The notes below the pieces were generated by a model. The model worked only from the letters and a program-made list of their open reading frames with translations. It was not told the origin of the DNA and did no database searches. A stretch of 64,000 nucleotides of DNA from contig CAZQFB010000002.1 of assembly GCA_964592525.1 (NCBI GenBank), positions 3,310 to 67,309 of the forward strand. The letters run 5' to 3'. Positions 10,512 to 64,000 of the stretch are shown here, in pieces (within the stretch, counting starts at the first letter, position 1; each line of letters starts with the position of its first letter). Source of the stretch: an uncultured Candidatus Saccharibacteria bacterium. GTDB taxonomy: Bacteria; Patescibacteriota; WWE3; CAZQFB01. The translations under genes were made by a program, and so were the position numbers.

Positions 10512-10551
10512 GAGTGGGGGTGCCTGTCTGCCCTCACTCTTATGTTTAATT
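10512..10551. terminator. Hairpin terminator copy 3, shared by convergent genes
   Basis: gagtggggg-loop-ccctcactc followed by T-rich run; overlaps the stop of the minus-strand gene 10546-12411. Confidence 0.5.
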
Positions 10552-31185: not shown

Positions 31186-31236
31186 GGAATTAAAAAAGAT
31201 TAGGCTCGCTACGAGCAATCGCAACTTAGCGAGCCT
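31186..31236 (-). terminator. Rho-independent terminator of pentapeptide gene A
   Basis: 9-bp perfect stem aggctcgct/agcgagcct overlapping the stop codon, followed on minus strand by a U-run. Confidence 0.55.
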
Positions 31237-44846: not shown

Positions 44847-44849
44847 AAG

Positions 44850-45917: not shown

Positions 45918-45924
45918 AATTGCC

Positions 45925-47127: not shown

Positions 47128-47209
47128 GGAGCGTTTGACCGATGCCAAAAGCAGTGTGCTATACTTTTGATGATATGAATAATCTTGCCCAGAGAGGGGG
47201 TGAATCTTA

Positions 47210-47689
47210 ATGATTAAAAATCAAACTGGTTTTACGCTGATTGAGATGTTGATTGTCATGGGGGTGATTGCGATTTTGGCGGTGGCGATTTTAAGTGCTA
47301 TTGACCCAGTTGAACAAATGCGCAAAGCGGAAGATTCCAGGATGAGGTCGGATACAGCGGAACTACTTAATGCCCTTGAGCGTTACTACACCACCTTTAG
47401 GGAATATCCATGGTCTACAGCACCTGATGCGGATTGTCCGCAGTTTGATGGTTCTCCTGCAACTTGTGATTTACCCTTGGATGACTTAATTGACACCAAT
47501 GAACTCAAACCACAGTTTGCTAACCGTGAGCTGGAGAATTATTACATCACCCAAGATAGTAACGATTCAGTACATATCTGTTTTAGACCCCAATCTAAAT
47601 CTTGGGATATGGAGGCTACTACTAAGGCTTATACCCAAACAGGCACAACCGGTTGCACTGCTGATTGTTATGTCTGTGTGCCCGAGTAG
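47210..47689 (+). CDS. pilA: Type IV major pilin
   Basis: Class III signal: KNQTG/FTLIEMLIV with Glu at +5; C-terminal Cys pairs. Confidence 0.85.
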   Translation: MIKNQTGFTLIEMLIVMGVIAILAVAILSAIDPVEQMRKAEDSRMRSDTAELLNALERYYTTFREYPWSTAPDADCPQFDGSPATCDLPLDDLIDTNELKPQFANRELENYYITQDSNDSVHICFRPQSKSWDMEATTKAYTQTGTTGCTADCYVCVPE

Positions 47690-47828
47690 GCTCTTGGTAA
47701 GCTAGCCTGTTGGCTAAAGAGAATGACATTATTAGGGAAAAGCTCCTTAAATGGGGTTTTTTCCTTTTTCTGAAGGTTTTTATCTTTTCAGGCAGGGCGG
47801 AAAATATGGCGCGTGTTACTATTTAATC

Positions 47829-48557
47829 ATGCTCGTTTGCTGGCTATTTCTATTTGGTTTGGTGGTGGGGTCGTTTCTTAATGTGGTTATTGATCGGGTA
47901 CCCCGCCAAGAAAAAATTACCGGACGCTCTCACTGTGATTTTTGCCAGCGGCAATTGAGCTGGCGTGAGCTGCTGCCCCTTATTAGTTTTGTTTGCCAAA
48001 AAGCGCAGAGTAAATGTTGCCACCACCGACTCTCCTGGCAATACCCTCTGGTAGAAGTGGCGACGGGGATTTTGTTTGTCGTGCTTTGGCGCCAAGCAGA
48101 TCTGCTACTCCTGCCTTTGGCAGCTGGGTTGTTGGCGCTCTTAGTGATTGATCTGAAAACAATGCTTTTGCCCCAGACCCTCACCTATCCCCTATTGATA
48201 TTGGCACTTGTGCGCTTAGTTATTCTTCCTGACTTAAATCTGGGCTTAACCTTGTTAGGGGCTTTGGGTGTGGGTCTGTTTTTTTACAGTATTATTGTCA
48301 TCACTAAAGGGAGGGGAATGGGTCAGGGGGATGTGACTTTGGGTGTTTTGGTTAGCCTGATTGCCTCTTGGCCTTATCTGGTAACCTCGCTTTTTGTAGC
48401 CAATCTCTTAGGTGGGGTGGTTGCTTGGCTGCTGCTTCTTTTGGGTGTGAAAAAAAAGAGCGACAAACTACCTTTTGGTCCTTTTTTGATTATCGGGTTA
48501 GCATTAACCCTCCTTAATGGTGAGTGGTTAATGGCGCTGCTCTTTCCGCTCTGGTAG
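47829..48557 (+). CDS. pilD: Prepilin peptidase (A24 family)
   Basis: N-terminal CxxC...CxxC zinc motif, catalytic-type GQGD; start taken at internal ATG. Confidence 0.85.
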   Translation: MLVCWLFLFGLVVGSFLNVVIDRVPRQEKITGRSHCDFCQRQLSWRELLPLISFVCQKAQSKCCHHRLSWQYPLVEVATGILFVVLWRQADLLLLPLAAGLLALLVIDLKTMLLPQTLTYPLLILALVRLVILPDLNLGLTLLGALGVGLFFYSIIVITKGRGMGQGDVTLGVLVSLIASWPYLVTSLFVANLLGGVVAWLLLLLGVKKKSDKLPFGPFLIIGLALTLLNGEWLMALLFPLW

Positions 48558-48601
48558 GGTTTGCCAATGACCTTGAGTATCATGCTAAACTGATAAGGTG
48601 T

Positions 48602-49198
48602 ATGAAAAACTGCTCTGTCACTAACCAAACCGGGTTCACCTTAGTGGAACTGATTATTGCCATGACGCTAATGTCACTGATTGCGTTTGGGTTTCCTTCC
48701 TTTGGCGCCTATAACAATAGACAAGCTATCCAACTCGCTGCCAAACAACTTAAGACAGATCTTAGGGACAGTCAGTCAAGATCGCTTCATGGTACGAAAG
48801 CCAAGGCAACTGGTGATGAGGCTGCTATTTGGGGTTTAAGGTTGACTTTAGCTTCAGATGTTTACCAGCGCTATTATTGTGACGCCACACAAACTTCTCT
48901 GAACGATTATTGCTACAATCAGTGTGTGGCTGATCGGGAGTTCCGTTTACCAAAAGGCGTACAATTTAAAGAGATCACTGCTTACCCGGCTACTGGTGGT
49001 TTGAATGTGGTATTTACACCAGCCACCAACAGTACGGTGTTGTTTCACACTGATGATGGTGCCCCAGTGCAAGTTGGTGGTACCCCAATCACCAGTGTTT
49101 CAGTGGAGTTGGGCATACCCGGTTTTGGTGAGGGAATGACAGAATCTCGCTATGTGGTAATTGATAAAAACGGTAATATTGAAGATCTTAAACTATGA
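48602..49198 (+). CDS. Minor pilin / pseudopilin
   Basis: Prepilin motif TNQTG/FTLVELIIAM with Glu at +5. Confidence 0.7.
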   Translation: MKNCSVTNQTGFTLVELIIAMTLMSLIAFGFPSFGAYNNRQAIQLAAKQLKTDLRDSQSRSLHGTKAKATGDEAAIWGLRLTLASDVYQRYYCDATQTSLNDYCYNQCVADREFRLPKGVQFKEITAYPATGGLNVVFTPATNSTVLFHTDDGAPVQVGGTPITSVSVELGIPGFGEGMTESRYVVIDKNGNIEDLKL

Positions 49199-49812
49199 CC
49201 TGTCCCGCTAATAATCATCAAGACCTAACCAACTCCCCTGCTTCTGGTCAGGGTTTAATTGAAGCCATGCTGGCAGTAGCAGTTGTCATGGTCGTGATGT
49301 ATTCATTGCTCAATTTAGGGGCGCTGGGGTTAAGAAACTCTAGATTGGCTAGTGATCGGGTGGTGGCGACCAGATACCTACAGCAAGGGATTGAGCTTTT
49401 ACGGGCACAGCGTGACCAGAGTGGTGGTTGGAGTCAGCTAAGCGCGCTGCCGAAAGATACGGTCTTATGTTTAAATCCGCAAACGGGTGTAATTAGTGCG
49501 GGTGAACCTAATTGTTATTACGAAGACGGCGGTTTGAGGGAAGAATACCTTTTAAACCAGGTGTTTGAGCGGACGCTATTGGTGTCAAAGGTCTATCGTG
49601 CGGCAGCAGAAGCTTGTCCTAATGATTGTAGTGCCTGTGGTGAGATTACCAGTGCTGTGGGTGGTCATGTGGATGATTGTTCTCTGAAAATCACTGTGCA
49701 ATTGGCTTGGCCGGGGGTGAGCGCGAATTGCGAAGACCACCCGGTTTTAGGCGTGGTTGGTAATAAATATTGCTTGCGAACCAGCACCATACTGACTAAT
49801 TGGCGGCAATGA
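49195..49812 (+). CDS. Minor pilin-like protein
   Basis: GQGLIEAMLAV prepilin-like N-terminus; start overlaps upstream stop. Confidence 0.6.
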   Translation: MTCPANNHQDLTNSPASGQGLIEAMLAVAVVMVVMYSLLNLGALGLRNSRLASDRVVATRYLQQGIELLRAQRDQSGGWSQLSALPKDTVLCLNPQTGVISAGEPNCYYEDGGLREEYLLNQVFERTLLVSKVYRAAAEACPNDCSACGEITSAVGGHVDDCSLKITVQLAWPGVSANCEDHPVLGVVGNKYCLRTSTILTNWRQ

Positions 49813-50468
49813 TAAAACAAAAAGGTTTTACCATGATTGAGGTGTTGTTGACCTTGGGGGTCTTGTCCCTTATTTCAACCGTAGCCTTAACCATCTTTCA
49901 AGAAACAATGGCGACTTACCAAAAAGCTAATAATATGTTGGAGCTGGAAAGCAACGGTGGTTACGTGCTTAGCCTGCTAGAGGAAAAAATTAGGTCCGCG
50001 CAGGCAGTGTTAGCTTATAAGGATTATGACAGTTGTACGGAAGGGTGTGCGAGTAGTTGGCTTTTGTTAGTTCCGGCTCATAAAACAGTTTCAGTGGCGT
50101 GCATTTATCTGGGCCATGTTCATGACTCTGGGGGCGATCCTGACCTGTGGCCGAATAATGGGTATGTTTTTCTGCAGGAAGGGACGTCTGCCCAATGTAC
50201 TGCGCTTAACCCTGCGGAGGATCTGGATGGCAGTCTGCTTGATAGTTGGCAGACAGCAGCGCTGTCCAATCGCAACCAAGACGATCCCTTTAATGGTGTT
50301 AATGTGTCCTCGTTAGTATTTATGATTGCGCAACAGGTGGGTAATGACCCAGCCACAGTGGGGATTGCTTTGGATTTAAAGCAAGGCGTGAGTGGCAATC
50401 CGCTAACCGTGGTACCAGAAAATAAAAAAGCCTCTTTGCACCTAGAAACTACTGTTTCTCTGCGCTAA
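49800..50468 (+). CDS. Minor pilin-like protein
   Basis: KG/FTMIEVLLTLGV prepilin motif. Confidence 0.7.
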   Translation: MAAMIKQKGFTMIEVLLTLGVLSLISTVALTIFQETMATYQKANNMLELESNGGYVLSLLEEKIRSAQAVLAYKDYDSCTEGCASSWLLLVPAHKTVSVACIYLGHVHDSGGDPDLWPNNGYVFLQEGTSAQCTALNPAEDLDGSLLDSWQTAALSNRNQDDPFNGVNVSSLVFMIAQQVGNDPATVGIALDLKQGVSGNPLTVVPENKKASLHLETTVSLR

Positions 50469-50480
50469 AATAAAGAAAGT

Positions 50481-52907
50481 ATGCTGCCCCAAAAGAGTCT
50501 GCTTAAATTAACTACTTCTTTAATTTTCACCTTGGCTTGGCTGGTTAGTTATCCCTCTGTGGCGCAAGCGGAGGATCAGTGGCAGGTGGTGGGTGATTAT
50601 CCAGGCACTATTAATAATTCTTTTAATGAGGTTTTAGATGAAAAAGCTCCTAATTGTACCGATGGTAGTATTTACTCCTTAAACGGTCATTTGTATGTAA
50701 TTATAGATGGACCTTATTATCGCACAACTGTTTATCGGCTGGATGGCAATTCATGGGTAAATATTGGAGAAATTACTAAAAGTAGCGGTTCAAGTAATCC
50801 TGGAAAAGCTATGACATACTACCAAGATAATCTTTATGCTATTAGCCGTGCCTACACTAGAGAATACATTTTTCCTGATGGTGATATTACTACTCAATGG
50901 GATAGTACGGGAGTTGATCATTACACTGAGGTAGATGAAGACGTACTAGCTCCCATAGCGGGAGATACCAACGATCACATTTATGGTCGTATGAATGATG
51001 TCGATCAATTCAGCCTGAGTGATCCCACCAAAAATGAGACTGCTAATCGAATAGATATTCATTTTTACGGTAGGGGGATCCATGACAAACCCGATAACAC
51101 TGATTGGGCCCCTGTATTGGTGGAACTTATGCTTGATGGCGTGGCAATATCCGATGATACTTTAAGTTTGCCCAATAACAACTGGGGTTGGTTTACCACT
51201 AATCACGCGAATAATGTTGAATTAACACCTTCAGAGTTAAACAGGTTAGAGCTCAAATTAACACCCAACCATGTACAAGACATGACAACTTATTATATTG
51301 CTGCTGTCGTCGTGGAGGTATCATATGATTCAGCACTAACGGCAGCGAAATATATTTCTGATAATAATTGGCAACCCTTAGGCAATACCTCCCTAGATTG
51401 TGATGATACAGGCAGTGCTTATTTTAGCTGCAATACTACTGGTGTGACTGGTTTTTGGGGTTATAACAATAAACTGTATGTAGGTACTGGTGCTTCTACT
51501 GGTCCGAAAGTGTTTGAGTGGAATGGTTCTACTTGGTCTTTAGTGGGATCATCTGGGCTGGGTGATCGTGCGGGGGGAACCGATCGGGGTAGTCTTGATT
51601 TACTTACTCATGACTCAAGCCTGGTGGCGGGAGGTATGCAGAACACAACCTGCACAGTATGCCTTTCACCCGGTAATTGTGTGCCTGGGGTTTCATGTTC
51701 CTTAGCTTCAATATATAAATTTAATTCTGCTAATAATTGGAGTTATCTTGCTTATGATAATGACACCACTATGACCGCTGTTGCTGACACTAATGCTCGT
51801 TCTTTAGTGGAAATTGCCAGTACTTTATACACGCATGATGTAAATAGTGTTTATAAATACATTCCTGATGCGGGGCATCCTGACCCCGATATTATGGGTT
51901 TAGTGGGGAGTCGGAGGTTTAATTCTCCTGCGCAAAATGTAGGTATGACCTCTTGTGATAATTATTTATACACCCATGCTTCTAGGTCTAGCTTTGGCAC
52001 CTGGGATGAGGTTTATCGCTTTGATACTACTAGTGGTACTCAATGGGACATGGTCGGTGATTATTTTGCACTGGGTGAAAAGCATCTGTACCACGGGGTG
52101 CACAGCATCACCACCTTAAATGATAAGGTTTATGTTCTTACTAAACAGTCATTGGATGATCTTGAGTTTCATATTTTAGTTAGTTACAAAGGATTGCTGT
52201 CTAATTTTGAACCATATCCTGCTGTGCAAGTGTGGGAGTATACCGGCGCGGCGGGCAGTTGCGGTGCCGTCAATGGCACTATCAGCGGCGTGGTGTTTGA
52301 GGATGAGGATCTGGATGGTCTTTATGATACGGGCGAAAGTTATAAGTCTGGGGTGGTCGTAAGCCTTAATCCCGGAGGTCTTTCCGTCAATTCCTTAGCA
52401 GCGGACCCAAGCTATACTTTCACCGAGCTAGACCCTAGTCCCACGTACTCCCTAGCGATTACGTTGCCCAGTGGCTGGGTGGCCACCACACCCTACCAGG
52501 TTGGTAACATTGTCTTTAATGAAACCACTCCCTCTTACACCATCAACTTTGGTTTGATCCAAGGCGGTACCCTTCAAGGTACGGTTTGGGAAGATGAGGA
52601 CAAGCAATGCGACATTGATCCCGGTGAGCAAAATTACACTGGTGCAGTGGTTGATCTTCAGTTTGACCACAGCTTGTCCACCTCAAACCCTCAACTAAAA
52701 TATGATGTAGCCACCTCATCGGAGATCACCACGGGTACTAATTTTTCTTGGCTGGTGGCGCCTGGTAGTTATACCGTCAGCGTGGACTCTAGTCCTTGGG
52801 CACCTTCGGGGTACGATGCTACTACTGACACCAGTGTTAGTGGGGTGGTGGTTACTAAAGGCGGCACAACCACTACGTCAGCAGCAAGTTGTCTTAACTT
52901 GGAGTGA
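50481..52907 (+). CDS. Large secreted protein with C-terminal SdrD-B/Cna-B-like repeats (candidate pilus-associated adhesin)
   Basis: Signal peptide; repeated G.V.EDED.DG.YD.GE motifs near C-terminus; embedded in pilus operon. Confidence 0.5.
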   Translation: MLPQKSLLKLTTSLIFTLAWLVSYPSVAQAEDQWQVVGDYPGTINNSFNEVLDEKAPNCTDGSIYSLNGHLYVIIDGPYYRTTVYRLDGNSWVNIGEITKSSGSSNPGKAMTYYQDNLYAISRAYTREYIFPDGDITTQWDSTGVDHYTEVDEDVLAPIAGDTNDHIYGRMNDVDQFSLSDPTKNETANRIDIHFYGRGIHDKPDNTDWAPVLVELMLDGVAISDDTLSLPNNNWGWFTTNHANNVELTPSELNRLELKLTPNHVQDMTTYYIAAVVVEVSYDSALTAAKYISDNNWQPLGNTSLDCDDTGSAYFSCNTTGVTGFWGYNNKLYVGTGASTGPKVFEWNGSTWSLVGSSGLGDRAGGTDRGSLDLLTHDSSLVAGGMQNTTCTVCLSPGNCVPGVSCSLASIYKFNSANNWSYLAYDNDTTMTAVADTNARSLVEIASTLYTHDVNSVYKYIPDAGHPDPDIMGLVGSRRFNSPAQNVGMTSCDNYLYTHASRSSFGTWDEVYRFDTTSGTQWDMVGDYFALGEKHLYHGVHSITTLNDKVYVLTKQSLDDLEFHILVSYKGLLSNFEPYPAVQVWEYTGAAGSCGAVNGTISGVVFEDEDLDGLYDTGESYKSGVVVSLNPGGLSVNSLAADPSYTFTELDPSPTYSLAITLPSGWVATTPYQVGNIVFNETTPSYTINFGLIQGGTLQGTVWEDEDKQCDIDPGEQNYTGAVVDLQFDHSLSTSNPQLKYDVATSSEITTGTNFSWLVAPGSYTVSVDSSPWAPSGYDATTDTSVSGVVVTKGGTTTTSAASCLNLE

Positions 52908-52930
52908 GCTAAAAATAATATGGAGGTAAC

Positions 52931-53482
52931 ATGAACAAAAAAGCAGTCATCTTAATAGGATCCTTAATCGTGCTTATATTTTTGGGTTTAGCGACTTGGT
53001 ATATCAATCATAACCCAAAAAACACTTCCGAGGCTGCTCAAATAGCAGTGCCTTTTGGCAGCCATGAAAGTGGCGCGCAAAATAGCCAAGCAAATTTAGC
53101 CAACGATCCTCGTTATAAGGACTACCGTACGGAACCAGTACCACCCTCCTCTGACTTTAGTGTGTTTTTAACTGATGCTTTTGGTACCGAGATAGCCAAC
53201 GATTCGGTGATTACCGTTGATGACTCCAGTTATATCACTAATTATGACCTGCACTTTCCTAATTTAGGTCAGCTGGAAAGTGGAGAGAGTTACACCTTAT
53301 GGTTACAAACGGACGAGGGTGCCCGCACACTGCTAGGTCAACTTGAGGTGGCGGAAGGTGTGGGTGTCTATCAGGCAGCAGGGTCAAGAGTGAAAGCGGG
53401 CTGGAGCATTTTGGTGATATATGAAAATAGCGCTAATGAAGAAAACCTGATTTACCGAGGCAGATTAATACCTAAGCCATAA
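52931..53482 (+). CDS. Hypothetical membrane-anchored protein
   Basis: 183 aa, N-terminal TM. Confidence 0.4.
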   Translation: MNKKAVILIGSLIVLIFLGLATWYINHNPKNTSEAAQIAVPFGSHESGAQNSQANLANDPRYKDYRTEPVPPSSDFSVFLTDAFGTEIANDSVITVDDSSYITNYDLHFPNLGQLESGESYTLWLQTDEGARTLLGQLEVAEGVGVYQAAGSRVKAGWSILVIYENSANEENLIYRGRLIPKP

Positions 53483-55776
53483 TGAAAAACCACCCTCCCC
53501 TACTTGGCTTAGTCACCATTATGACCTTACTGGGAGTGGGTTGGTTAGTGGTGCGTGAGGTCCAGGCCAGTTTTGGTGTTTATCCCAAGAATGGCACTTT
53601 TACTGGCTATGTGTTTGAGGATTTAGATAGTGATGGGGTGAGAGATGTCGGCGAACCCAACTATAACTTTACCCTCAACCCTTATTACTCTATTACATAC
53701 CAGGGTCCCGAGAATGGTAACTTGTTGGTTAACGGTGCTGTATCTCCTACTAAAAATCTGGTTTCCAATGAGGTGCGGCCTGGTTTGTATACGGTTAATT
53801 TTGGTACCCTGCCCGCGGGTTTTATGTTAACCACTTCACCAAGCCAGCAGGTTAATGTACCACCAGGGGGAGTGGCTCCGGAGGTTTTGTCTTTTGGCAT
53901 TAAAGTTGGCCCCCCACGGATAGAGGGCGTGGTGTGTGATGATTCAAATAATAATAATAGTTGTGACGCGGGGGAAGAATTAAGCGGAATAACTGTGGGT
54001 TACACCACACCCACTTTAGGCAGTAACTTTGTGACCACACCCACCACTCAAATTGCGAGCTGCTCTGGTTGTAACTACACGACCATGGAGAACACGCCCT
54101 CACTTTACCCAGGCACTAATCTAGTAGCAGTCACTATTCCGCTGGGGAAAATACTTAAGTCACCTACACAACCACAACAGAAAGAGTTAGTGCTGGGAGA
54201 ACATTGGCAGGTTGATTTTGTTTTTGGTGGTGAAACGGATGGTCGGATTGGTGGCTATCTGTGGAATGACTATAACCAAAATAGCTTATATGATGAGGAA
54301 GAAGACGAAACGATATTAAATGACCAGCGATTTACGATTTCTGTTTGGGAAGGTGGTCATGAGTACTTCTCTGCTCCTCCTCATCCGGCGGCTGGTACTT
54401 ACCTGACTGACCTTCTGACCCCTGCTTCCGATTACAATGTTAACTTAGAGCTGCCTTGGGGATATTGTTTGGGTGATCTGGGGGTGGCGGAGGTAGGTTG
54501 GAATGATAATGAGTCTGTTTATGAATATGCAGTTAAAGAGTCTCCTCTGGAGACCGGTTCAGTGATTGAAGTGACTGGTGGTGCGGTGTCTACCGTTAAT
54601 TTAGGTGTGTTGTCTGATTATGATCTCTCGCAAGACCCACCAACGGATGTTATTTTAACGCCTCCTGATGAGGCTACCGTCCGGCTGATTATTGATGATG
54701 TGGGAGATGCTACTCCCTGTTGGGGGGGTGGTGATGTCTCTGTTGCTTTTGACGACAGTGGCTGGCCACCAGGATTAACTTTCAGCACAACTCCGCCTGT
54801 ACCGGCTCTTCTTGATCCCAACTCTAAACCGGATTTTTATCTGACAATTTCTGCTGATAGCACAGTGCATGATGGTATTTATCCATATGAATATATAGCT
54901 ACTAATCCTTTCCGCGGTAAAGTGCTGGGGGGGTACAATGTGGTCGTTGGTTTGCGTAGCTGGCTTCAGCTGGTTGACTTAGATGTGTTTTCAGCCTACA
55001 CCGGTATTGAACCACCCATTAATTTTGTGCTGCCCCAGACTCCTTGTTGTGGATACTCTCCCTATTTAGTGACGAGAAGCACGTCGGCTTGGGGGGGTGG
55101 TGATTTAGGTGGGATGGCCGTGGCGGTGGGCCAAATAGACATTGCGGTGACCACTACGGCTGGAGATCCCGCGGCTAGCAGCCGGAGTTGGGTCTTGAAT
55201 CAGTATACAGGTGATCTTGGTTTGCCCCTTAGTGAGTTGGCGCTTGGTTTGGTGAGTACAGAGTGTGATTTTGACCAGCTGGTACCGGGGGGTGCTTGCC
55301 AGTACGAAGGTAAGTACCTGCCAGATGGTTATGACCTTACCGGAGTGGGCGTGGCGGTGGTTTATGTGCCAGATGATTTGTTTATTAATACAGATTTTAG
55401 ATCGGACGCGGTTAATGAACGGGTGATCATTGTCGTTGCTGGTGAGATTAAGATTGCAGGGTCAGTGGGCGTGCCCTACAACCCCCCCTCCACGTACGCT
55501 AATATTGAAGCGGTGCTGATTACTTTAGACGGCTGGGATATTATTCTGGATAGTAATGATAATTTAAGTGAACAACTGCGCCTGACTGGTGGCTTGTATG
55601 CTTCCGGGCATCTGGAAAATATGCGTGAGGTCCAGGAAAGTGGTGGTCAGGTTAATACCTTCCCGTCTTTGGTGGTGAGCAGGGATCCGTTCTATTACCA
55701 TACGCCTATCTATCAGTTTTCAAAAGTAAAATTGCACTGGCGAGAAGTTAATTTTATGCCAACTAACTATGACTAA
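53482..55776 (+). CDS. Large secreted protein with SdrD-B-like repeats (second candidate pilus-associated adhesin)
   Basis: N-terminal anchor; GYVFEDLDSDGVRDVGEP and GGYLWNDYNQNSLYDEEED motifs. Confidence 0.5.
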   Translation: MKNHPPLLGLVTIMTLLGVGWLVVREVQASFGVYPKNGTFTGYVFEDLDSDGVRDVGEPNYNFTLNPYYSITYQGPENGNLLVNGAVSPTKNLVSNEVRPGLYTVNFGTLPAGFMLTTSPSQQVNVPPGGVAPEVLSFGIKVGPPRIEGVVCDDSNNNNSCDAGEELSGITVGYTTPTLGSNFVTTPTTQIASCSGCNYTTMENTPSLYPGTNLVAVTIPLGKILKSPTQPQQKELVLGEHWQVDFVFGGETDGRIGGYLWNDYNQNSLYDEEEDETILNDQRFTISVWEGGHEYFSAPPHPAAGTYLTDLLTPASDYNVNLELPWGYCLGDLGVAEVGWNDNESVYEYAVKESPLETGSVIEVTGGAVSTVNLGVLSDYDLSQDPPTDVILTPPDEATVRLIIDDVGDATPCWGGGDVSVAFDDSGWPPGLTFSTTPPVPALLDPNSKPDFYLTISADSTVHDGIYPYEYIATNPFRGKVLGGYNVVVGLRSWLQLVDLDVFSAYTGIEPPINFVLPQTPCCGYSPYLVTRSTSAWGGGDLGGMAVAVGQIDIAVTTTAGDPAASSRSWVLNQYTGDLGLPLSELALGLVSTECDFDQLVPGGACQYEGKYLPDGYDLTGVGVAVVYVPDDLFINTDFRSDAVNERVIIVVAGEIKIAGSVGVPYNPPSTYANIEAVLITLDGWDIILDSNDNLSEQLRLTGGLYASGHLENMREVQESGGQVNTFPSLVVSRDPFYYHTPIYQFSKVKLHWREVNFMPTNYD

Positions 55777-56764
55777 ACTAAAGTCACCGACCATTCAAAT
55801 CTTTAATCAAGAACCACCGGAAGGTCAGGTGCTGTTATTGATTTTGTTAGTGATGGGAGTGGCCCTTAGTGTTGGTTTGGCTGTCTCTTCCAGGTCTTTG
55901 GGTTCTCTCAAGCAAACCTCCGATGCAACGGAAGCGGTTATTTGTTTAGATGCAGCCGAGGCTGGCATTGAAGATGTTCTGCAGGCTTTAAGTGATCCTA
56001 GCCAAGCATTGCAGTATGAGCTGTGTAACAGTGATAACTTAGCAGATGATAGCTGGGATGATGTGGCGGCTCCCGATGATAATATTATTGTGTGTGATTT
56101 GGATAATAATGTTTGTGGTGGGAAAGAGAAGATAGCTGATCCGGGGTATGATGTAGCTTACTGTCTCTGGCAAAACGACGGTCAATACCACACTGTTAAC
56201 GTACCCCAAGACGACCCCTTGGAAGTGATCTTAACCAAAACAGGCTATACACCCCGCCCAAGCAGTATTGATCTGCACTGGTCTGGGGGTGCTGCTGTGC
56301 CTTATTTTTCGCTGGAAGGATTGAACACGTCTAATTGGACGGCAGCCACTTTAGATAAAGGTATTCATGACTTGAGTGCTGCGGATGGGTGTGGTTTGGC
56401 TGATACTAGAGACAACGACCCTAATACCAGTAGTAGTTCGGCGTTAATTGCTGGTGGTCAAAAAATTAATCTGCTAGTCCCGCCGTTAGATGGGGGCTAT
56501 CCTTCTGACGTAGTTAAACTACGGTTGCGTTTTTTGTGTGAGGATGTAGCTGAAATATATGTAGTGGGCAAAGATTGTGCGGGGTTGGATTGTTCTGGCG
56601 GCGAAGTCGCCTTGCCACCCAATGCGTACACAATCCGTTCCACTTGCCTTAACCAGAAAGTCAGTCGGACTTTGGAGGTGGTTAAAAGCCAGGCGGTTCT
56701 ACCAGCACTATTTGATTTTGGGGTTTATTCGGGTTCAACCACCTTACCTTTAGAAGAGGAGTAA
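55769..56764 (+). CDS. Hypothetical membrane-anchored protein in pilus operon
   Basis: N-terminal hydrophobic helix; no canonical prepilin motif. Confidence 0.4.
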   Translation: MTKLKSPTIQIFNQEPPEGQVLLLILLVMGVALSVGLAVSSRSLGSLKQTSDATEAVICLDAAEAGIEDVLQALSDPSQALQYELCNSDNLADDSWDDVAAPDDNIIVCDLDNNVCGGKEKIADPGYDVAYCLWQNDGQYHTVNVPQDDPLEVILTKTGYTPRPSSIDLHWSGGAAVPYFSLEGLNTSNWTAATLDKGIHDLSAADGCGLADTRDNDPNTSSSSALIAGGQKINLLVPPLDGGYPSDVVKLRLRFLCEDVAEIYVVGKDCAGLDCSGGEVALPPNAYTIRSTCLNQKVSRTLEVVKSQAVLPALFDFGVYSGSTTLPLEEE

Positions 56765-57826
56765 TTGATAAACATGTCTGCCACTTATGAATTTTTTGGT
56801 TTGGATATCGGCTCGTACTGGATTAAAGGAGTGCAGTTACATCCTAATAAAGAAGGCACTTTTTCGCTGGTTTCTTTTGGCGTAATCCCCTCCCCGGTTA
56901 ATCTGGCTTTAAGCGATCATGAGGGAGATCTGCGTACCATGTCGGAAGGTCTCAAGGAACTGGTACGCGCCTACAAGCTACCCCCAGCCGTAGTAACCAC
57001 TCTCCCGGAAGGGTTACTGTTTAGTTTTGTGATTGATTTTCCGCGCATGAGTGAGAAGGAGTTAGCCAAATCTTTGCAATGGGAAGCCGAGCAATACCTA
57101 CCCATGCCACTGGAGGAGGTATCTTTGGATTACACAATTTTGGAGCCAACGGGACGGTTGAAAAATCAAGAACGGATGGAGGTGGCTTTTATCGCGGCAC
57201 CGAAAAAATTAGTTAATAAATACCTGCGCGTTATTGAACAAGCAGGTCTTGAAGTACTGGCGGTGGAAAACCAAACAACAGCAGTGGTGCGGTCTTTAGC
57301 AGTGGGAGCAGTTGATACCCCCACGACGATCTACATCTCCTTAGGCGCTTTAGCGACTGATTTTGCCATTGTGCGCACGGGGGCGGTCCGCTTTACCCGT
57401 AGTATCCCCACCGGTGGTGGGGTGATGACCCGCGCTGTCGCGGAAAAGTTGGGTTTTGACAGCCAACGCGCTGAAGAATACAAGAAAAGTCAGGGTGTAA
57501 CCGAGGAAGGCGTGGAAGGTAAGATGCGGGAAGCTTTGGCTCCGGTGGTTGATTTGTTGGTTTCCGAAGTACGACGAGCGATGACCTTTTATGCCTCTCG
57601 CTATCACCCTGATTCCATTAAACGAGCGGTGTTGTTTGGTGGTTCGGCCTTGTTGCCGGGTTTGCTGCCTTACCTGGCGGGGCATCTTGACTTAGAGATT
57701 GAGTTGGCTAATTCAACCCGACTGATTACCTACCCCCCTGAAAGTAGCAGTTTAAAAGAACAGTTTATTCAATTATCACCAATCACTACTGTGGCGATTG
57801 GTTTAGCCATGAAAAGAATAGCCTAA
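56765..57826 (+). CDS. pilM: Type IV pilus assembly protein PilM
   Basis: Actin-like ATPase fold signature FFGLDIGS; position before pilN-pilO. Confidence 0.8.
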   Translation: MINMSATYEFFGLDIGSYWIKGVQLHPNKEGTFSLVSFGVIPSPVNLALSDHEGDLRTMSEGLKELVRAYKLPPAVVTTLPEGLLFSFVIDFPRMSEKELAKSLQWEAEQYLPMPLEEVSLDYTILEPTGRLKNQERMEVAFIAAPKKLVNKYLRVIEQAGLEVLAVENQTTAVVRSLAVGAVDTPTTIYISLGALATDFAIVRTGAVRFTRSIPTGGGVMTRAVAEKLGFDSQRAEEYKKSQGVTEEGVEGKMREALAPVVDLLVSEVRRAMTFYASRYHPDSIKRAVLFGGSALLPGLLPYLAGHLDLEIELANSTRLITYPPESSSLKEQFIQLSPITTVAIGLAMKRIA

Positions 57827-57857
57827 AAAATGCTACAATTTAAACGAGGATCTGCCC

Positions 57858-58424
57858 ATGCCCACAAGTGATATTAACCTAGTCCCAAAAGAAGTTCAGC
57901 TCCAGAAAAAAAAGCGCAATTACCAGCGAGCTTGGTTAATTGGTGGCGTGGTTCAATTTGTGTTGGTGTTGGCGGTGACAGTGGCGTTGATACTCATTAA
58001 CTTATCACAAAACCGAGCGATTACTTCAGCCCAGAAAGATATTGACCGGGATTTGAAAATAATCAGTTCACAACTAGCAACTTTGGGTGTGGTTAAAGAT
58101 ATTGAAAACAGAACCAATTATGTGCGGCAGGTTTTTTCCACCCGTAATTATTATTCCAAGTTACTATCCCTTATGCCCACCCTTTTGCCCCAAGGAGCAA
58201 CCGTGCAACAGTTATCGGTGACTGGGGATACCCTTAAACTAGTTGGTACTGCTCTTAGTACGGTTGATGTGGCTAAGTTTTTAAAAGTGGCAGTTGCTCC
58301 GGATCAAGGCGGTCAATATTTTAAGAGCGTCCAATTACGGTCTGTGTCACTTAATCAGGGTAGCGGTACGGTTCAGTTTTTAATTCACTTAGATTTAATT
58401 AAAGGAGTATTGGGTAAAGAATGA
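57858..58424 (+). CDS. pilN: Type IV pilus assembly protein PilN
   Basis: N-terminal INLVP motif, single TM. Confidence 0.75.
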   Translation: MPTSDINLVPKEVQLQKKKRNYQRAWLIGGVVQFVLVLAVTVALILINLSQNRAITSAQKDIDRDLKIISSQLATLGVVKDIENRTNYVRQVFSTRNYYSKLLSLMPTLLPQGATVQQLSVTGDTLKLVGTALSTVDVAKFLKVAVAPDQGGQYFKSVQLRSVSLNQGSGTVQFLIHLDLIKGVLGKE

Positions 58425-59287
58425 GACCGTTTAAAAACCCCCAACTGAAGGTAAAACTAAAAGATTTAGCACCAGTGGTGTTACTCTTACTTTCTTGCCT
58501 ACTTTTATTTCTGGTTATCATGCCACAGTTTCGGCGGGTTCGTGAGCTAAATGAGCAGAGAAAAGCCATCCAGCTCAAACGGGATGAGCTGGCACAAAGG
58601 GTTAACCTGATTAGAAGTTATACGGTGTCTCTGAATTTATTAACGGCCGACCAGACTTTACTAACGCGTGCTCTGCCAGCTAAAGAAGAAATACCAACCT
58701 TGATGGGTCAGGTTCAGCAAATCGCTCGTGAGGCGGGGGTGACTTTAGGCACCTTGAATTATTCAGGTCGGGTCGTGGGAGCAGGAGACGCAGTGGGTAA
58801 GGTGACCGTGCAAGCAGGAATTAATGGTAATTTTAAAACCATCACGCGCTTTTTGGAGTTGTTGGAACAATCGTCACGGCTGCTGGATACCATGAGTCTT
58901 AATTTGAGCGGTCAGGGTGTTGGTTTGTCCCTGTCCATGCCTCTTGATGCTTATTATTACCCTGCTGAAGAGGTCACCGAGCCTAATGTGGTAATCACTT
59001 TAAACACTTCTTCTCCAGAATACATTACTACTTTAGCTAAAGTGAAAGCTCTTAAATATTATGATATTCCGGTGGATACCGGTCGGGGTATTGGCAAAGA
59101 CGATCCTTTTAGCGCTGTTGGTACCACTCCTAAGGTGGAAGAAGTACCTAAGCCCTCACCACAGCAAGAGCAACCCCCGACTGACGCCACAAACCAGTCA
59201 ACTGACCAAGTGCCACTACCTCCAGCTACCTCTCCCACCCAACCAAGTGGGTTGGTGCCTGTTCCCCCATCACCGGTTGCGCAATAA
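58421..59287 (+). CDS. pilO: Type IV pilus assembly protein PilO-like with Pro-rich C-terminus
   Basis: Single TM, coiled-coil, position after pilN. Confidence 0.65.
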   Translation: MRPFKNPQLKVKLKDLAPVVLLLLSCLLLFLVIMPQFRRVRELNEQRKAIQLKRDELAQRVNLIRSYTVSLNLLTADQTLLTRALPAKEEIPTLMGQVQQIAREAGVTLGTLNYSGRVVGAGDAVGKVTVQAGINGNFKTITRFLELLEQSSRLLDTMSLNLSGQGVGLSLSMPLDAYYYPAEEVTEPNVVITLNTSSPEYITTLAKVKALKYYDIPVDTGRGIGKDDPFSAVGTTPKVEEVPKPSPQQEQPPTDATNQSTDQVPLPPATSPTQPSGLVPVPPSPVAQ

Positions 59288-59965
59288 CTCTGGGCGCTGC
59301 TTCTGGGTTTTGCCCAGAGCTTGCTGCTGTCGCCAGTGGGTGATGGCTTGATGGTTACCCGATAACAGTACCTCTGGGACCTTTAATCCCTGAAACTCAC
59401 GTGGCTTTGTGTATTGTGGGTATTCAAGTATCGGTTGACCCTGCTCATTTTTGAGGTTAAAGGATTCTTCCAGGAAAGAAGCGCTGCTGCCTAAGATGCC
59501 TGGTCTTAATCGGGCGGTGGCTTCAATTAAGACTAGGGCCGGTAGCTCACCACCCATGAGTACATAATTGCCAATGGAGATTTCCTCATCAATTAAGTGC
59601 GTGCGCACTCTTTCATCAACTCCTTCATAGTGACCACAAATTAAGAGCAGGTGGTCTTGTTGGCTTAGCGCTTGTGCCTTTTCTTGATTTAGCAGTTGAC
59701 CTTGGGGACTTAGTAAAATAAGCCGGGCTTGGTGGTTTGGGTCAATGGCTCTGACAGCATTAAAGATCGGCTCTACTCTTAAAATCATGCCCGCTCCCCC
59801 ACCAAAAGGTTTATCATCCACCGTGCCTCTTTGGTCTATGCTCCACTGGCGTAGTTGGTATAGATCAATTTTTATTTTCTGTTCTTGTTGTGCTCGTTTG
59901 AGAATGGAAGTGTTAAGAGTGCTCGTAAAAGCTTCCGGAAAAAGAGTTAAGACCGAGTAAGTCAT
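59270..59965 (-). CDS. trmD: tRNA (guanine37-N1)-methyltransferase
   Basis: 231 aa, SPOUT-fold TrmD pattern (LTLFPE ... GGGAGM ... CGHYEGVDERV). Confidence 0.9.
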   Translation of the reverse strand: MTYSVLTLFPEAFTSTLNTSILKRAQQEQKIKIDLYQLRQWSIDQRGTVDDKPFGGGAGMILRVEPIFNAVRAIDPNHQARLILLSPQGQLLNQEKAQALSQQDHLLLICGHYEGVDERVRTHLIDEEISIGNYVLMGGELPALVLIEATARLRPGILGSSASFLEESFNLKNEQGQPILEYPQYTKPREFQGLKVPEVLLSGNHQAITHWRQQQALGKTQKQRPELLRNR

Positions 59966-59966: not shown

Positions 59967-60242
59967 CTACACGCGTGGGCTGTCCTCTAGAGCTAGTGGT
60001 TCAGGCTCGTCTTCTACCAGCTCAACGCGGACTTGACGATTTTCCTTGAGCGCTTTTAGACGGATTAGGGTGCGGATGGAGCGAATCGTTCGCCCGGCCT
60101 TGCCAATCACCATGCCTTTATCTTCTGGGGATACCTGGATAAGGTACTGCTCCAGCTCCCCTTCTTGTGGTTCTTTTTTGATCATCACTTCCTTCGGGTT
60201 TTGCACAATAGAGGTGACCAGATACTCAAGCAGTTTCTGCAT
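59967..60242 (-). CDS. KH-domain RNA-binding protein (YlqC-like)
   Basis: VIGKAGRTIRSIRTL KH motif; between rpsP and trmD; start taken at internal ATG. Confidence 0.75.
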   Translation of the reverse strand: MQKLLEYLVTSIVQNPKEVMIKKEPQEGELEQYLIQVSPEDKGMVIGKAGRTIRSIRTLIRLKALKENRQVRVELVEDEPEPLALEDSPRV

Positions 60243-60594
60243 CTGGTGGTTCCTCGGTTTCTGGGGGCGTTGGGGTTGCTGTTTCGGCAACAGGCTCGGC
60301 TTGCTCGCTTACTGTCTCATCATTTACCGATTTTTTATTTGCTTCGTAGGGTATATAGACATAGGTACCCTCAAGCAGTTTTTTAATAGCTGTGGTTGGT
60401 TGGGCTCCCGCTTTAAGCCAGTGCTGGTAACGTTGTTCATCAATTTTAAATTCGGGGCTGGGTAGGCTGGGGTTGTAATAACCCAAGATCTCAATAAACT
60501 TGCCATCTCTGGGTGCTAAGGCATCAGCCACCACCACTCTAAACGAGGGCTTATTTTTTTTACCGGTTCTGGTTAATCTTATTCTTGTGGCCAT
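60226..60594 (-). CDS. rpsP: 30S ribosomal protein S16 with C-terminal extension
   Basis: MATRIRLTRTGKKNKPSFRVVVAD N-terminus. Confidence 0.9.
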   Translation of the reverse strand: MATRIRLTRTGKKNKPSFRVVVADALAPRDGKFIEILGYYNPSLPSPEFKIDEQRYQHWLKAGAQPTTAIKKLLEGTYVYIPYEANKKSVNDETVSEQAEPVAETATPTPPETEEPPDAETA

Positions 60595-61286
60595 AGCTTG
60601 TGGATGGCTTTTTTAGCAGCATCTTGCTCCGCTTTTTGTTTACTTTTGCCGTTGCCGGTACATATATTTTTGCCATTGATATTTACCGCTACGGAAAATT
60701 GCTTGTCGTGGTCAGGTCCCCACTCTTTAACGACCTCGTAAGTGGGAGTAGCACTATGGGTTTCCTGCGCTTTTTCTTGAAACAGACTTTTAAAATCCTT
60801 AAAGGTCTGATTTTCAATAATACTGTTAAGCTTGGGAAATAGTACCCGTTCTAGCAGTTTCTGGCAAGAGTCTATCCCTTGTTCTAAGAATAGCGCTCCC
60901 AGAAAAGCTTCAAAGGTATTGGCGAGGATGTATTCTCTATCCCGACCACCACTAGCCTCTTCACCTTTAGCAAGGTATAGATACTGACCTAATTGTAGTT
61001 GTTTGGCTGTCTCGGCTAAGGATACGGTGTTAACCAAAGCGGAACGGTAGTTGGTTAACAACCCCTCATCCTCTGTAAATTGGGTATATAAATAAAAACT
61101 GGTGAGAAACTGTAACACCGCATCACCTAAAAACTCTAAACGTTCGTTGGAAGGTAGTGAAAAATCTTGGTTTTCGTTGAGGTAGGAGCGATGGACAAAA
61201 GCATTACGAATTAAGGCCGAGCTGGTAAAATCCACTGTTAATATGTCTCTTAATTCTGGGGACAGATTTTCACTCGTCAATTTCAT
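60579..61286 (-). CDS. rnc: Ribonuclease III
   Basis: ERLEFLGDAVL signature, C-terminal dsRBD. Confidence 0.9.
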   Translation of the reverse strand: MKLTSENLSPELRDILTVDFTSSALIRNAFVHRSYLNENQDFSLPSNERLEFLGDAVLQFLTSFYLYTQFTEDEGLLTNYRSALVNTVSLAETAKQLQLGQYLYLAKGEEASGGRDREYILANTFEAFLGALFLEQGIDSCQKLLERVLFPKLNSIIENQTFKDFKSLFQEKAQETHSATPTYEVVKEWGPDHDKQFSVAVNINGKNICTGNGKSKQKAEQDAAKKAIHKLWPQE

Positions 61287-61521
61287 CTAAATGATCCTTA
61301 ATTAAATCAATCATATTTTGGACGGTAATTATTTCTTTAAGTTCTTTCTTGGTAATAGTGATACCAAATAGTTCTTCAATTTTTATGACAATATGTTCAA
61401 AATCTTCAGGGGCGGCGTTGAGGTCATTTTTTAGTTCGCTGCTGGGTACAATTTCCTCAATTTCTACGCCCAGACTTTCTGAAATAATGGCGATGACTTG
61501 GTCAGTTGTTGATGGGTTCAT
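61270..61521 (-). CDS. Acyl carrier protein-like protein lacking the phosphopantetheine-attachment Ser
   Basis: ACP-like helix pattern; DLNAAPEDFEHIV aligns to DLGADSLDTVELV with Pro at the Ser position; acp-rnc synteny. Confidence 0.6.
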   Translation of the reverse strand: MNPSTTDQVIAIISESLGVEIEEIVPSSELKNDLNAAPEDFEHIVIKIEELFGITITKKELKEIITVQNMIDLIKDHLDEIDE

Positions 61522-61946
61522 TGTGCCTCCTGATGTTCTTCTCTAACAAAAGACCCCAGAACGCCATTGATGAAGCTGCTTGATTGCTCGCCTCCATATT
61601 CCTTGGCTAATTCTACCCCCTCATCAATAGCCACCTTTAAAGGTGCTGGGTTATCTTGATCAAAGTGTAATTCAAACAAAGCAATTCTTAAACAAGTCAG
61701 ATCAATCGGGTCAATCTGGTCTACCTCCCAATCGGGAGCATATTTAGTGATGATTTGATCAATTTCCGCTTGGTGCTGGTGGACGCCCGTGATGATCTTA
61801 TTATAAAGTGTGGTTTCATAATTAGTGATGTTATTAACTTCGGCGAAAGCACTGACCGCTTCAGGCGTATCATCCTGATGAAAGGTTTCAGTGTAAAGAT
61901 GAGCGAGCGCAATTCTTCTGGAGTTGTGACGAATATCGGTGGGCAT
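61518..61946 (-). CDS. nusB: Transcription antitermination factor NusB
   Basis: RRIALAHLY and FINGVLG motifs; start taken at ATG right after rpmF stop. Confidence 0.85.
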   Translation of the reverse strand: MPTDIRHNSRRIALAHLYTETFHQDDTPEAVSAFAEVNNITNYETTLYNKIITGVHQHQAEIDQIITKYAPDWEVDQIDPIDLTCLRIALFELHFDQDNPAPLKVAIDEGVELAKEYGGEQSSSFINGVLGSFVREEHQEAQ

Positions 61947-62112: not shown

Positions 62113-62284
62113 TTGTTTAGTATAAACTTTCTGCGACCCTTTTTAAAAGGAGCTTTTAGTGATTACTTGGGGATTATAGGGAATTACCTCTACTTGTCAA
62201 CTGAAACGTTTTTTTGGCATCTGCGTTTGTTAAACAAGGCAATAACTTGAGGTTTTTTCTTGTTACAATCTATGAAGACTGTTT

Positions 62285-64000
62285 ATGATTAATAAGTATT
62301 TTTTTACATTAAGCCTCGGGATCTTGGTCACGCTGATTGTCAGTAGTCCTTGGCTGGAAAGCTCACTGGAAACCACTGCACTGGTATTTGTTTTTATTTT
62401 GCTCATGTCGCTAGCTTTTATTTTCTGCTTGCTAAGTAAGCAGCTCGTATTACCAAGAGCAGTTGTCATAAATTTTATTATTCTTTGTCTGCTCTTAACT
62501 GTTTCGGTCAGTCTGTCGGTGGTTATGCAACCCAGTTTAAGCGAAGCGCTGCGTTGGTATCTTGTGGCTTTAATTGTGTTAGTTAGCGCTTTAGTAGCTA
62601 GCAAAGACTACGCTCAAGAGGTGCTCATTAAGGCGCTGTTATTGAGTAGTTTGCTGGCAGTGGTCTGGTCTTTTTATCTTTACCAGCAAATGGATCCGGT
62701 CGTTACTCTCCGGCGCATGAGCGGGCTTTTAGCCAGTAGCAATGCTTGGGGTGGTTTTGTACTACTGTTTGTTCCGCTGGTCTTAGACAGAGCTTTAAAG
62801 GGTAAAGGTTGGCGCGGGCTTTGCTACTCCTTATTTCTGGGTGGTTTGGTGAGCACGGTGATTCTGTCACAAGCGCGCGCGTCTTGGTTGGCGATGGTGG
62901 TGGGTGTGAGTGTGGTCTTGTTTTGCCACCGCTTTCAGTGGCGCAGGATCGTGGTGGTTGGTGGCTATCTAATGGTTACTTGCTTGGCTTTGCTGGCTTT
63001 GTTTTATGCTCCCCGGTTGCTAGTGAGTAGGGTTTTTTCACAACCGCTATTAGAGTCAGAAACTGCAGCGACCAGCGAGGAAATGACTAGGGTTGATACG
63101 GCTTTTGTGCATCGGTACTCGCTTTGGCGCAATTCCTGGCGTTTAATCAAAGACTACCCCCTATTTGGGATTGGTTTGGGTAACTTTGGTCGGGTTTACC
63201 ACCAGTACCAGTCGGAAGCTTGGCTTTTTGCTACTGATCCGCATAATGATTACCTTGCGCTGTTAACTCAATTGGGTTCGGGGGGAGCAGTTTTTGTTGT
63301 GGTGGGGGGGGTGTATTGCTTACGTCGCTTAAAAAAAGTTACGCACACAGGTGAGGAAAACGCGATTGCCTTTTGGGGTATTTTGCTAGCTGTGGCGACA
63401 CACATGTTACTGGAGAACAGTACAGCGGTGTTGAGTAGTTTGGTGATACTAGCGGTGCTGGGGGGTATTATCTTGGCGAACTCGGCAAGTGTGCCTGCTA
63501 AATTGCCGCTCAAGCGAGGCTGTTTGCTGTTAGTCATATTTATGTTGGGGTTAAGTAGTTGGCACTATTTAGCAGTGCGGTTTTTTCAGAAAGCGGAGCG
63601 AGCTAGGGCAGCAGGTAATTTACAGGTGGCAGCGGAGTATTATCAAAGGTCAATCAATCTCAACCCGTATCAAGCCTATAATTATGAGCGTTTAGGTACG
63701 CTTGCCTTTAGCCAGCAAGAATATCAGGTAGCCAAACATCTTTTCACCCGCTCGCTGGCAGTGGATCCCACGATCTCGGAGGTTCATGGTCAGTTGGCAG
63801 TAACACATTATGCTTTAGGGGAAAGTGACAGCGCGGAAGCGGCGTTTTTAGAAGCCATTACAAGATCACCTTATGCTACGCCTCGCTATTATAATGCCTT
63901 GGCAAGATTTTATCTGGAACAAGGTCGGGCGGATAAAGCTTTAGTGGTCTATGAACAGGCAGTGGCTAATTTTCCTCTCAATGACATTTGGTTTACTTAC
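62285..64000 (+). CDS. O-antigen ligase-like (Wzy_C-type) polytopic membrane protein with C-terminal TPR repeats; 3' end outside window
   Basis: Manual translation from ATG 62285 stays open to the window end (frame checked at five positions); GIGLGNFG ... DPHNDYL motif; TPR-like C-terminus; absent from ORF track because no stop in window. Confidence 0.65.
   Translation, partial: MINKYFFTLSLGILVTLIVSSPWLESSLETTALVFVFILLMSLAFIFCLLSKQLVLPRAVVINFIILCLLLTVSVSLSVVMQPSLSEALRWYLVALIVLVSALVASKDYAQEVLIKALLLSSLLAVVWSFYLYQQMDPVVTLRRMSGLLASSNAWGGFVLLFVPLVLDRALKGKGWRGLCYSLFLGGLVSTVILSQARASWLAMVVGVSVVLFCHRFQWRRIVVVGGYLMVTCLALLALFYAPRLLVSRVFSQPLLESETAATSEEMTRVDTAFVHRYSLWRNSWRLIKDYPLFGIGLGNFGRVYHQYQSEAWLFATDPHNDYLALLTQLGSGGAVFVVVGGVYCLRRLKKVTHTGEENAIAFWGILLAVATHMLLENSTAVLSSLVILAVLGGIILANSASVPAKLPLKRGCLLLVIFMLGLSSWHYLAVRFFQKAERARAAGNLQVAAEYYQRSINLNPYQAYNYERLGTLAFSQQEYQVAKHLFTRSLAVDPTISEVHGQLAVTHYALGESDSAEAAFLEAITRSPYATPRYYNALARFYLEQGRADKALVVYEQAVANFPLNDIWFTY

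Follow-up and report, generated by a model that had tools for sequence, protein, structure and literature searches.

Acyl carrier proteins (ACPs) are among the most conserved and most highly connected of bacterial proteins, and the serine that carries their phosphopantetheine (Ppant) group is treated as strictly invariant. In established ACP and AcpS biochemistry the only Ppant acceptor known to us is a serine at the N-terminus of helix II, which is also the ACP 'recognition helix'. The mitochondrial ACP (mACP) of Plasmodium falciparum (PF3D7_1208300) has a phenylalanine at the serine position, carries no Ppant and is essential, docking via Phe113 onto the LYR protein Isd11 of the Nfs1 Fe-S complex; no Ser-less ACPs were found in that study outside Apicomplexa and Vitrella (PMC8547962). 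The literature searched, coverage of which was incomplete, held no description of Ser-less ACPs in CPR, Patescibacteria or Saccharibacteria, and such proteins are apparently undescribed in bacteria.

The protein described here is encoded within a window of 64 kb (the whole stretch of DNA that was analysed) by a minus-strand CDS at 61270–61521 with an ATG start and an 83-aa product (MNPSTTDQVIAIISESLGVEIEEIVPSSELKNDLNAAPEDFEHIVIKIEELFGITITKKELKEIITVQNMIDLIKDHLDEIDE). The product is highly acidic, with a pI of about 4.2 and 20 Asp and Glu residues versus 6 Lys and Arg, an acidity that matches that of AcpP. An AGGAGG Shine-Dalgarno sequence (61526–61531, minus strand) lies within the 3′ end of nusB, 4 nt 5′ of the start codon; the start codon itself overlaps the nusB stop codon as ATGA, and the stop codon is situated 17 nt inside rnc. 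The preliminary description of this DNA, made from the sequence alone, had reported an 83-aa ORF in the acp-rnc position, and these overlaps with nusB and rnc confirm it.

The gene belongs to a tightly packed minus-strand series with the order rpmF-nusB-ACP-like ORF-rnc-rpsP-khpA-trmD. The first gene of the unit, rpmF (ribosomal protein L32; 61948–62112, minus strand like the genes that follow), has upstream of it a promoter (TTGACA—16 nt—TATAAT; 62173–62200, minus strand) that matches the sigma-70 consensus at 12 of 12 positions. It is followed by nusB (61518–61946), the likely start of which is the Met of MPTDIRH, with the longest ORF reaching a GTG at 61997. To the other side of the ACP-like gene are rnc (60579–61286; RNase III of 235 aa, with AAGGA upstream of the start), rpsP (60226–60594; ribosomal protein S16, assigned from its sequence and from the Pfam Ribosomal_S16 label on syntenic genes of related loci), a gene for a KhpA-type KH-domain protein (59967–60290; the longest ORF overlaps rpsP and the true start is probably further downstream), and trmD (59270–59965; tRNA (m1G37) methyltransferase). 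No terminator-like site was found on the minus strand from the rpmF promoter region down to position 59000. The Shine-Dalgarno sequence, the ATGA coupling and the 12/12 promoter together predict expression of the ACP-like gene from within a ribosome and RNA-processing operon. A gene for a Wzy_C/TPR membrane protein is transcribed divergently and extends past the window edge.

Codons 33–41 (61399–61425, minus strand) encode D-L-N-A-A-P-E-D-F in place of the canonical D-L-G-A-D-S-L-D-x Ppant-attachment motif, and Pro38 is specified by CCT at 61408–61410. The preliminary description had placed this proline at the position of the attachment serine, had proposed a profile alignment as the check on register, and had named a serine at 'S28 or S29' (actually S27 and S28) as the alternative. 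The protein passes the Pfam PP-binding model (PF00550) narrowly (22.5 bits versus a gathering score of 20.8; E 1.4e-4), and its matches to NCBIfam ACP models are full-length at 56.2 and 49.4 bits (cutoffs 71 and 70.45); it falls under every curated NCBIfam ACP cutoff. A phmmer search against all PDB sequences gave ungapped alignments with 109 ACP chains, in which NDLNAAPEDF lies over EDLGADSLDV. An hhalign comparison of a Ser-less profile (30 relatives) with a canonical ACP profile (25 ACPs including E. coli AcpP) extends over 80 columns with no gap at 99.7% probability, placing DLNAAPEDF over DLGADSLDT and Pro38 on the serine column.

An AlphaFold2 model computed from the 30-member Ser-less alignment has a pLDDT of 93.4 and a pTM of 0.81, with helices at residues 5–17, 38–52, 58–62 and 67–82; Pro38 opens helix II at the site of E. 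coli AcpP Ser36. The best 39 Foldseek matches in the PDB are all AcpP-type ACPs (type II FAS or mitochondrial), with TM scores of 0.8–0.9 and rmsd values that are mostly 0.6–1.0 Å, and identity between the window protein and solved ACPs is 28–39%. Ala37-Pro38-Glu39 thus occupies the place of Asp-Ser-Leu in sequence, profile and structural alignments alike, and with phmmer, hhalign, AlphaFold2 and Foldseek in agreement Pro38 sits at the Ppant serine position with a secure register. A misregister that would bring S27 or S28 to the attachment site is ruled out, since the alignments are all ungapped and both residues belong to loop I; the E. coli AcpP counterpart of S28 is S27 (mature numbering), a serine that is not modified.

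In its four-helix fold, length and acidity the window protein resembles type II FAS ACPs (AcpP/AcpA; PF00550, TIGR00517), and the equivalents of their G16, D31, L32, F50 and T64-V65 are conserved; its chromosomal position adjoining rnc is that of acp in Bacillota. It differs from AcpP/AcpA in having Ala-Pro-Glu for Asp-Ser-Leu, in lacking conserved equivalents of M44, D56 and Y71, in possessing an acidic extension of helix IV (codons 75–83, KDHLDEIDE; 61273–61299, minus strand; family consensus D-x-L-[ND]-E-[VI]), and in having no fab, plsX or acpS neighbours.

A word-indexed protein search with the single sequence returned the self-match alone. An exhaustive HMMER search of 1.84 billion representatives returned 704 proteins at E<1e-3; among the 150 matches listed there are 104 short proteins, 67 with Ser at the site and 37 that lack it (14 Pro, 7 Asp, 7 Glu, 3 Gln, and others). 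Further Ser-less members were recovered by profile search, and the combined searches yielded 51 sequences (cluster representatives) with a signature of Asn35 and no Ser38. The site residue is highly variable across this family and includes E, P, D, R, K, Q, L and others. Multi-domain proteins among the top matches (P0003–P0009 and others) were considered as informative fusions and rejected, being tandem canonical ACPs or unrelated architectures.

Comparison by column of the 51 Ser-less sequences with 151 Ser-containing ACPs recovered alongside them reveals differences at several positions besides S36, which is Ser in 100% of the canonical set and in 0% of the family (E. coli numbering here and for the next four residues). 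D35 is Asp in 92% of canonical ACPs versus 15% of the family, M44 (80% Met) and D56 (84% Asp) are variable in the family, and the Tyr/Phe at Y71 is replaced by Leu. The fold determinants G18, D33, L34, F52, T66 and V67 (window numbering) are kept in both sets. Position 40 (window numbering) is Asp in 88% of canonical ACPs and Glu in 86% of the family, in which the acidic helix II positions 40, 43 and 49 are conserved, and about half of the family (~55%) carries the C-terminal D-x-L-[ND]-E-[VI] extension of helix IV, which most canonical ACPs lack. The two sets remain distinct when columns 35–40 are masked, with median HMM score differences of +23.8 bits for the family versus −27.7 for the canonical ACPs, a partly circular comparison in that the HMMs were trained on these same sets; no more than three Ser-containing sequences are family-like by these masked scores, and many family-like sequences have a Ser at the preceding position (e.g. 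DFNVSSIEI and DLNASELEL). Loss of the serine is a property of a whole conserved family and not a one-off, and the family has also shed the other carrier-specific residues D35, M44, D56 and Y71. Asn35 is more likely a substitute for Gly33 (E. coli numbering) in the same turn conformation; its gain as a functional residue is disfavoured, with Asn also found at that column in 15% of canonical ACPs.

The window protein carries N35, P38 and D40 and lies between nusB and rnc, and it thereby shows the signature of the Ser-less family. Its subgroup contains six distant members (P0001, P0002, P0010, P0045, P0066 and P0151), and D-L-N-A-A-P-E-D is invariant in a 5-member alignment of the subgroup despite overall identities of 35–45%. 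Scans of genome contigs and metagenome contigs with the peptide DLNAAPED gave no confirmed relatives.

The genomic location is shared across the family. All 15 members with a readable context (8 looked up individually and 7 loci from GTDB) have the order nusB-X-rnc, where X is the ACP-like gene, and the start and stop codons at these loci usually overlap or abut. P0156, on a 179-kb JGI contig, lies in the arrangement recG…rsmD-rpmF-nusB-X-rnc-rpsP-KH; P0045, P0151, P0167, P0095 and P0146 are each situated between nusB and rnc, as is P0153 on four contigs. In the DLNAAPED subgroup the overlap with rnc is again 17 nt.

A scan of genome contigs with the RNase III of the window identified 56 loci. 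The closest relatives, at 52–57% identity, are from candidate division WWE3 MAGs (57%, 56% and 54%) and other Patescibacteria, and the host would on this basis be a Patescibacteria (CPR) lineage close to WWE3. When the ACP HMM was applied to all six-frame ORFs of the RNase III-matched loci, seven CPR loci (L008, L009, L010, L011, L012, L014 and L035) proved to have an ACP-like gene upstream of rnc; their motifs (DLNIGEMEL, DLNISELEL and DLNLGTLEV) have no Ser at the site. The same HMM found no ACP-like gene or remnant in loci of Peribacteria, Peregrinibacteria, Paceibacteria, Gracilibacteria and other CPR, where rnc starts at the nusB end or within about 150 nt of it. The non-CPR controls show other arrangements: in a Bacillota MAG the gene directly upstream of rnc encodes a canonical DSL ACP, the order in a Hyphomicrobiales MAG is plsX…acp-fabF-rnc, and a Christensenella MAG has plsX-rnc. 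The distribution suggests that the ACP-like gene was deleted repeatedly in sister CPR lineages; because many CPR lineages lost it, its job would be dispensable in these relatives.

Such losses are compatible with the gene being a decaying relic, an acp made useless by the loss of FAS II and awaiting deletion in a compact operon, possibly tolerated as a translational coupler of nusB to rnc. Sister lineages with rpmF-nusB-rnc and no ACP-like gene are what a relic would leave behind, family members differ widely in the residue that took the place of the serine, and these Ser-less ACPs have no known function. The pattern of substitution speaks against decay, however. In Nei-Gojobori counts for pairs from the WWE3-type subgroup of the family, the closest informative pair (L012 and L014) has a pN of 0.043 versus a pS of 0.625, and L010 and L035, with identical proteins, have a pN of 0 versus a pS of 0.045; in the remaining pairs pS is saturated (0.70–0.87) and pN is 0.16–0.30. 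Purifying selection where the gene is kept is computed for the WWE3-type subgroup, and for the DLNAAPED subgroup it is suggested by the invariance of the motif. ORFs of ~80 aa are intact across the family and retain a high-confidence ACP fold at 25–45% identity, a new conserved C-terminal motif has arisen, and a coupling spacer alone would not require conserved fold-determining residues. Given the purifying selection, the intact ORFs, the fold and the invariant DLNAAPED, the gene is neither a decaying pseudogene nor a mere coupling spacer in our reading, and we regard the relic explanation as unlikely. A chance ORF or pseudogene is likewise rejected on fold confidence, family conservation and a pN far below pS. 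The earlier suggestion that the protein is retained for another role draws support from this selection, from the DLNAAPED invariance and from the conserved operon placement, and the ACP-like protein is probably kept for some non-carrier job.

Genes for lipid synthesis and phosphopantetheinylation are absent from the surroundings. A Pfam scan of about 55 ORFs across the window revealed no ketosynthase, acyltransferase, PlsX, ACPS or Sfp. Searches of all ORFs by phmmer, seeded with FabF and PlsX from control loci and with an E. coli AcpS sequence, found no fabF, plsX or acpS in the window or in ~60 related loci with flanks of roughly 5–10 kb; over all 68 loci the FabF, PlsX and AcpS matches were confined to the non-CPR controls. 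The AcpS seed recovered an acpS beside rnc in a Kordiimonadales genome, so it is effective. Lipid biosynthesis is not identifiable in complete WWE3, SR1, TM7 and OD1 genomes (PMC3812714), and Patescibacteria are described as without fatty-acid synthesis and as recycling host lipids (PMC12455944). The reduced genome lacking fatty-acid synthesis that was proposed earlier fits the 64-kb window, the sampled flanks and the published genomes of the group. Because Patescibacteria are reported occasionally to acquire acpP horizontally (PMC12455944), a second, canonical ACP may be encoded elsewhere in the genome.

The protein could still act as a carrier if a non-canonical residue were modified or a different prosthetic group were used. 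Ser is present at the site in three family-like sequences and one position earlier in many, and modification is conceivable in some of these Ser-bearing relatives. The window protein itself offers little for such a mechanism: its only serines are S4, S14, S16, S27 and S28, inspection of the sequence shows no Ser, Thr or Cys at residues 29–54, the 8 residues on either side of Pro38 include no Ser or Thr, and there is no Cys anywhere in the protein. The preceding Asp and the AcpS-contact residues are also lost, and no PPTase is encoded in the 64-kb window or the sampled flanks. Continued carrier function is highly improbable. In the absence of the serine, phosphopantetheinylation at the canonical site and acyl carriage would be impossible, and the protein is presumably unmodified in vivo. 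The apo-only state that the preliminary description had proposed is supported by the proline at the site, the secure register and the lack of an alternative Ser or Thr nearby.

The operon itself raises another possibility, that the protein is a dedicated partner of the co-expressed RNA machinery and binds or regulates NusB, RNase III, or a basic ribosomal protein or assembly intermediate (L32, S16 or KhpA). All 15 of 15 loci place the gene between nusB and rnc, with codons mostly overlapping or abutting, the 17-nt rnc overlap is conserved in the DLNAAPED subgroup, the unit has a single promoter and no internal terminator, and the protein is highly acidic (pI 4.2). A parallel exists in mitochondria, where ACP sits in the MALSU1-L0R8F8-ACP ribosome-assembly module. 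Operon position nevertheless argues only weakly for a link with RNA processing, since acp adjoined rnc before the serine was lost (the Bacillota and alphaproteobacterial controls have a canonical ACP beside rnc) and since lineages without the gene keep nusB-rnc. A dedicated partnership of this kind is rather unlikely. In its most specific form the proposal would give Patescibacteria a lineage-specific subunit or regulator of ribosome assembly, or of the transcription or processing of rRNA, in the shape of the Ser-less ACP. Translated together with NusB and RNase III, it would bind one of the two or a basic ribosomal protein via the acidic helix II face and the extended helix IV, an idea we offer as speculative and unlikely. 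If true, the protein would correspond in bacteria, though free of a prosthetic group, to the mitochondrial ACP of mitoribosome assembly modules.

The explanation that we favour, with a probability of roughly three in four, is that the gene is a positional orthologue of acpP/acpA that ceased to be a carrier once FAS II was gone and survives as an acidic, apo-only binding module. The fatty-acid synthesis genes would have been lost from an ancestral rpmF…plsX-fab-acp-rnc neighbourhood, carrier constraints on the ACP would then have relaxed with loss of the serine, and in many lineages the ACP-like gene itself would finally have disappeared. Where it survived, it may have done so through a protein-binding role that is independent of the prosthetic group. 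Candidate binding surfaces are the acidic face of helices II and III, the invariant DLNAAPED turn where helix II begins, and the family-specific acidic extension of helix IV.

Use of an ACP surface as a protein-binding module outside lipid synthesis has, by analogy, a counterpart in E. coli AcpP with MukB, IscS and SpoT among its partners, and the MukBEF-AcpP structure 9gm6 is among the Foldseek matches of the window model. Unlike the window protein, the AcpP of those complexes is a canonical holo-ACP that also serves FAS, and several of the non-lipid interactions of E. coli AcpP need the prosthetic group. The closer parallel is the Plasmodium mACP, in which an ACP fold is also kept after FAS II loss with a non-modifiable residue in place of the serine; the window protein combines the ACP fold with a non-modifiable site residue in a family under selection, as in mACP-type Ppant-free ACPs, and its retention would by analogy imply a carrier-independent role. 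The two differ in that one is encoded in a free bacterial genome and the other belongs to a eukaryotic organelle, and in that the site residue of the bacterial family is Pro or variable and not Phe. The Pfam scan of window ORFs gave no LYR-family match; proteins of this family are eukaryotic and are not known from bacteria. The serine was likely lost independently of the apicomplexan mACP, because the best matches of the window protein are bacterial ACPs and its acp-rnc position is bacterial.

The window protein is best described as a bacterial Ppant-free ACP, in all likelihood independently evolved; the defining serine was looked for and is absent, and classing the protein as a functional acyl carrier should therefore be avoided. 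Databases nonetheless label Ser-less genes 'acyl carrier protein' or PP-binding (JGI names), and metabolic reconstructions would then take them as signs that CPR genomes encode lipid or polyketide metabolism, a use that should be avoided. The family suggests that, where lipid synthesis has been outsourced, an ACP can be retained for a role that does not depend on acyl carriage, for which the only characterised comparable case is in apicomplexan mitochondria; it offers a clean natural system for studying apo-ACP surfaces and could bring to light a function that ultra-small episymbiotic bacteria perform independently of their hosts.

Rfam and tRNA scans of the window identified nothing relevant to the ACP-like locus. 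The Pfam scan of about 55 ORFs shows that the window also contains replication, translation and repair genes, together with a DUF5656 protein, LytR-type proteins and an EamA transporter, and a type IV pilus cluster is located at 43–59 kb.

Among the related loci L013–L056, the gene order rpmF-nusB-rnc is kept in many classes of Patescibacteria (CPR), including Peribacteria, Paceibacteria, Gracilibacteria and others, and the distance from the end of nusB to the start of rnc in the loci with this order is 0–150 nt, a spacing that marks where the ACP-like gene has been deleted with no gene left in its place. The NusB protein of locus L016 has a long acidic C-terminal tail. Locus L037 lies on a 615 kb chromosome (OZ246397.1) with the record title ‘uncultured Gammaproteobacteria bacterium’. 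This is probably a mislabelled Patescibacteria genome, because the chromosome is so small, the RNase III of the locus shares 46% identity with that of the window, and the locus clusters with those of CPR bacteria.

Serine-less ACP-like domains also occur outside the Patescibacterial family encoded between nusB and rnc, as seen in four HMMER matches to the ACP-like protein (P0057, P0006, P0081 and P0096). In P0057 an N-terminal domain is followed by the motif DLNADPFDL, such that here too the serine is replaced by proline. P0006 contains two repeats (DLGAKPADL and DLKAKAADL) following a signal-like N-terminus, and P0081 and P0096 are tandem ACPs in which the first copy is degenerate and the second is canonical.

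Divergently from the rpmF operon, a rightwards-transcribed gene (62276–64000, continuing past the end of the window) codes for a membrane protein with Wzy_C (O-antigen ligase-like) and TPR domains; the same neighbor is present at the related locus L003. The strong G/T skew at 62.2–63.8 kb is simply this gene. A large rightwards-transcribed type IV pilus cluster (43092–59287) contains genes for PilB-like and PilT-like ATPases, PilC, a prepilin peptidase, several N-methyl pilins and PilM/N/O, as well as two proteins of 764–808 aa with SdrD_B-like domains. The same cluster adjoins the operon in the related loci L002 and L004; large type IV pilus clusters are typical of episymbiotic CPR bacteria.

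No Pfam family matches any of the four consecutive ORFs at 7710–12411 (258, 268, 239 and 621 aa) at E<1e-3. Two leftwards-transcribed ORFs encode a class-I peptide release factor (13153–13860; 235 aa) and ribosomal protein L31 (13866–14321; 151 aa), the latter with an L31 domain at residues 24–86 followed by a C-terminal extension of ~65 residues. The release factor has a full RF-1 domain, and since its Pfam PCRF match starts only at profile position 101 it apparently lacks the N-terminal domain 1, for which there is no space upstream because the L31 gene abuts at 13866. This ORF may represent a truncated release factor, a pseudogene or an unusual arrangement. A rightwards-transcribed gene (25576–28032) encodes an 818 aa ATPase that resembles TrwB/VirD4 or HerA and is type IV coupling protein-like. 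Together with nearby genes for a pentapeptide-repeat protein (31235–31735) and a tyrosine recombinase (33507–34439), it may constitute the remnant of a mobile element.
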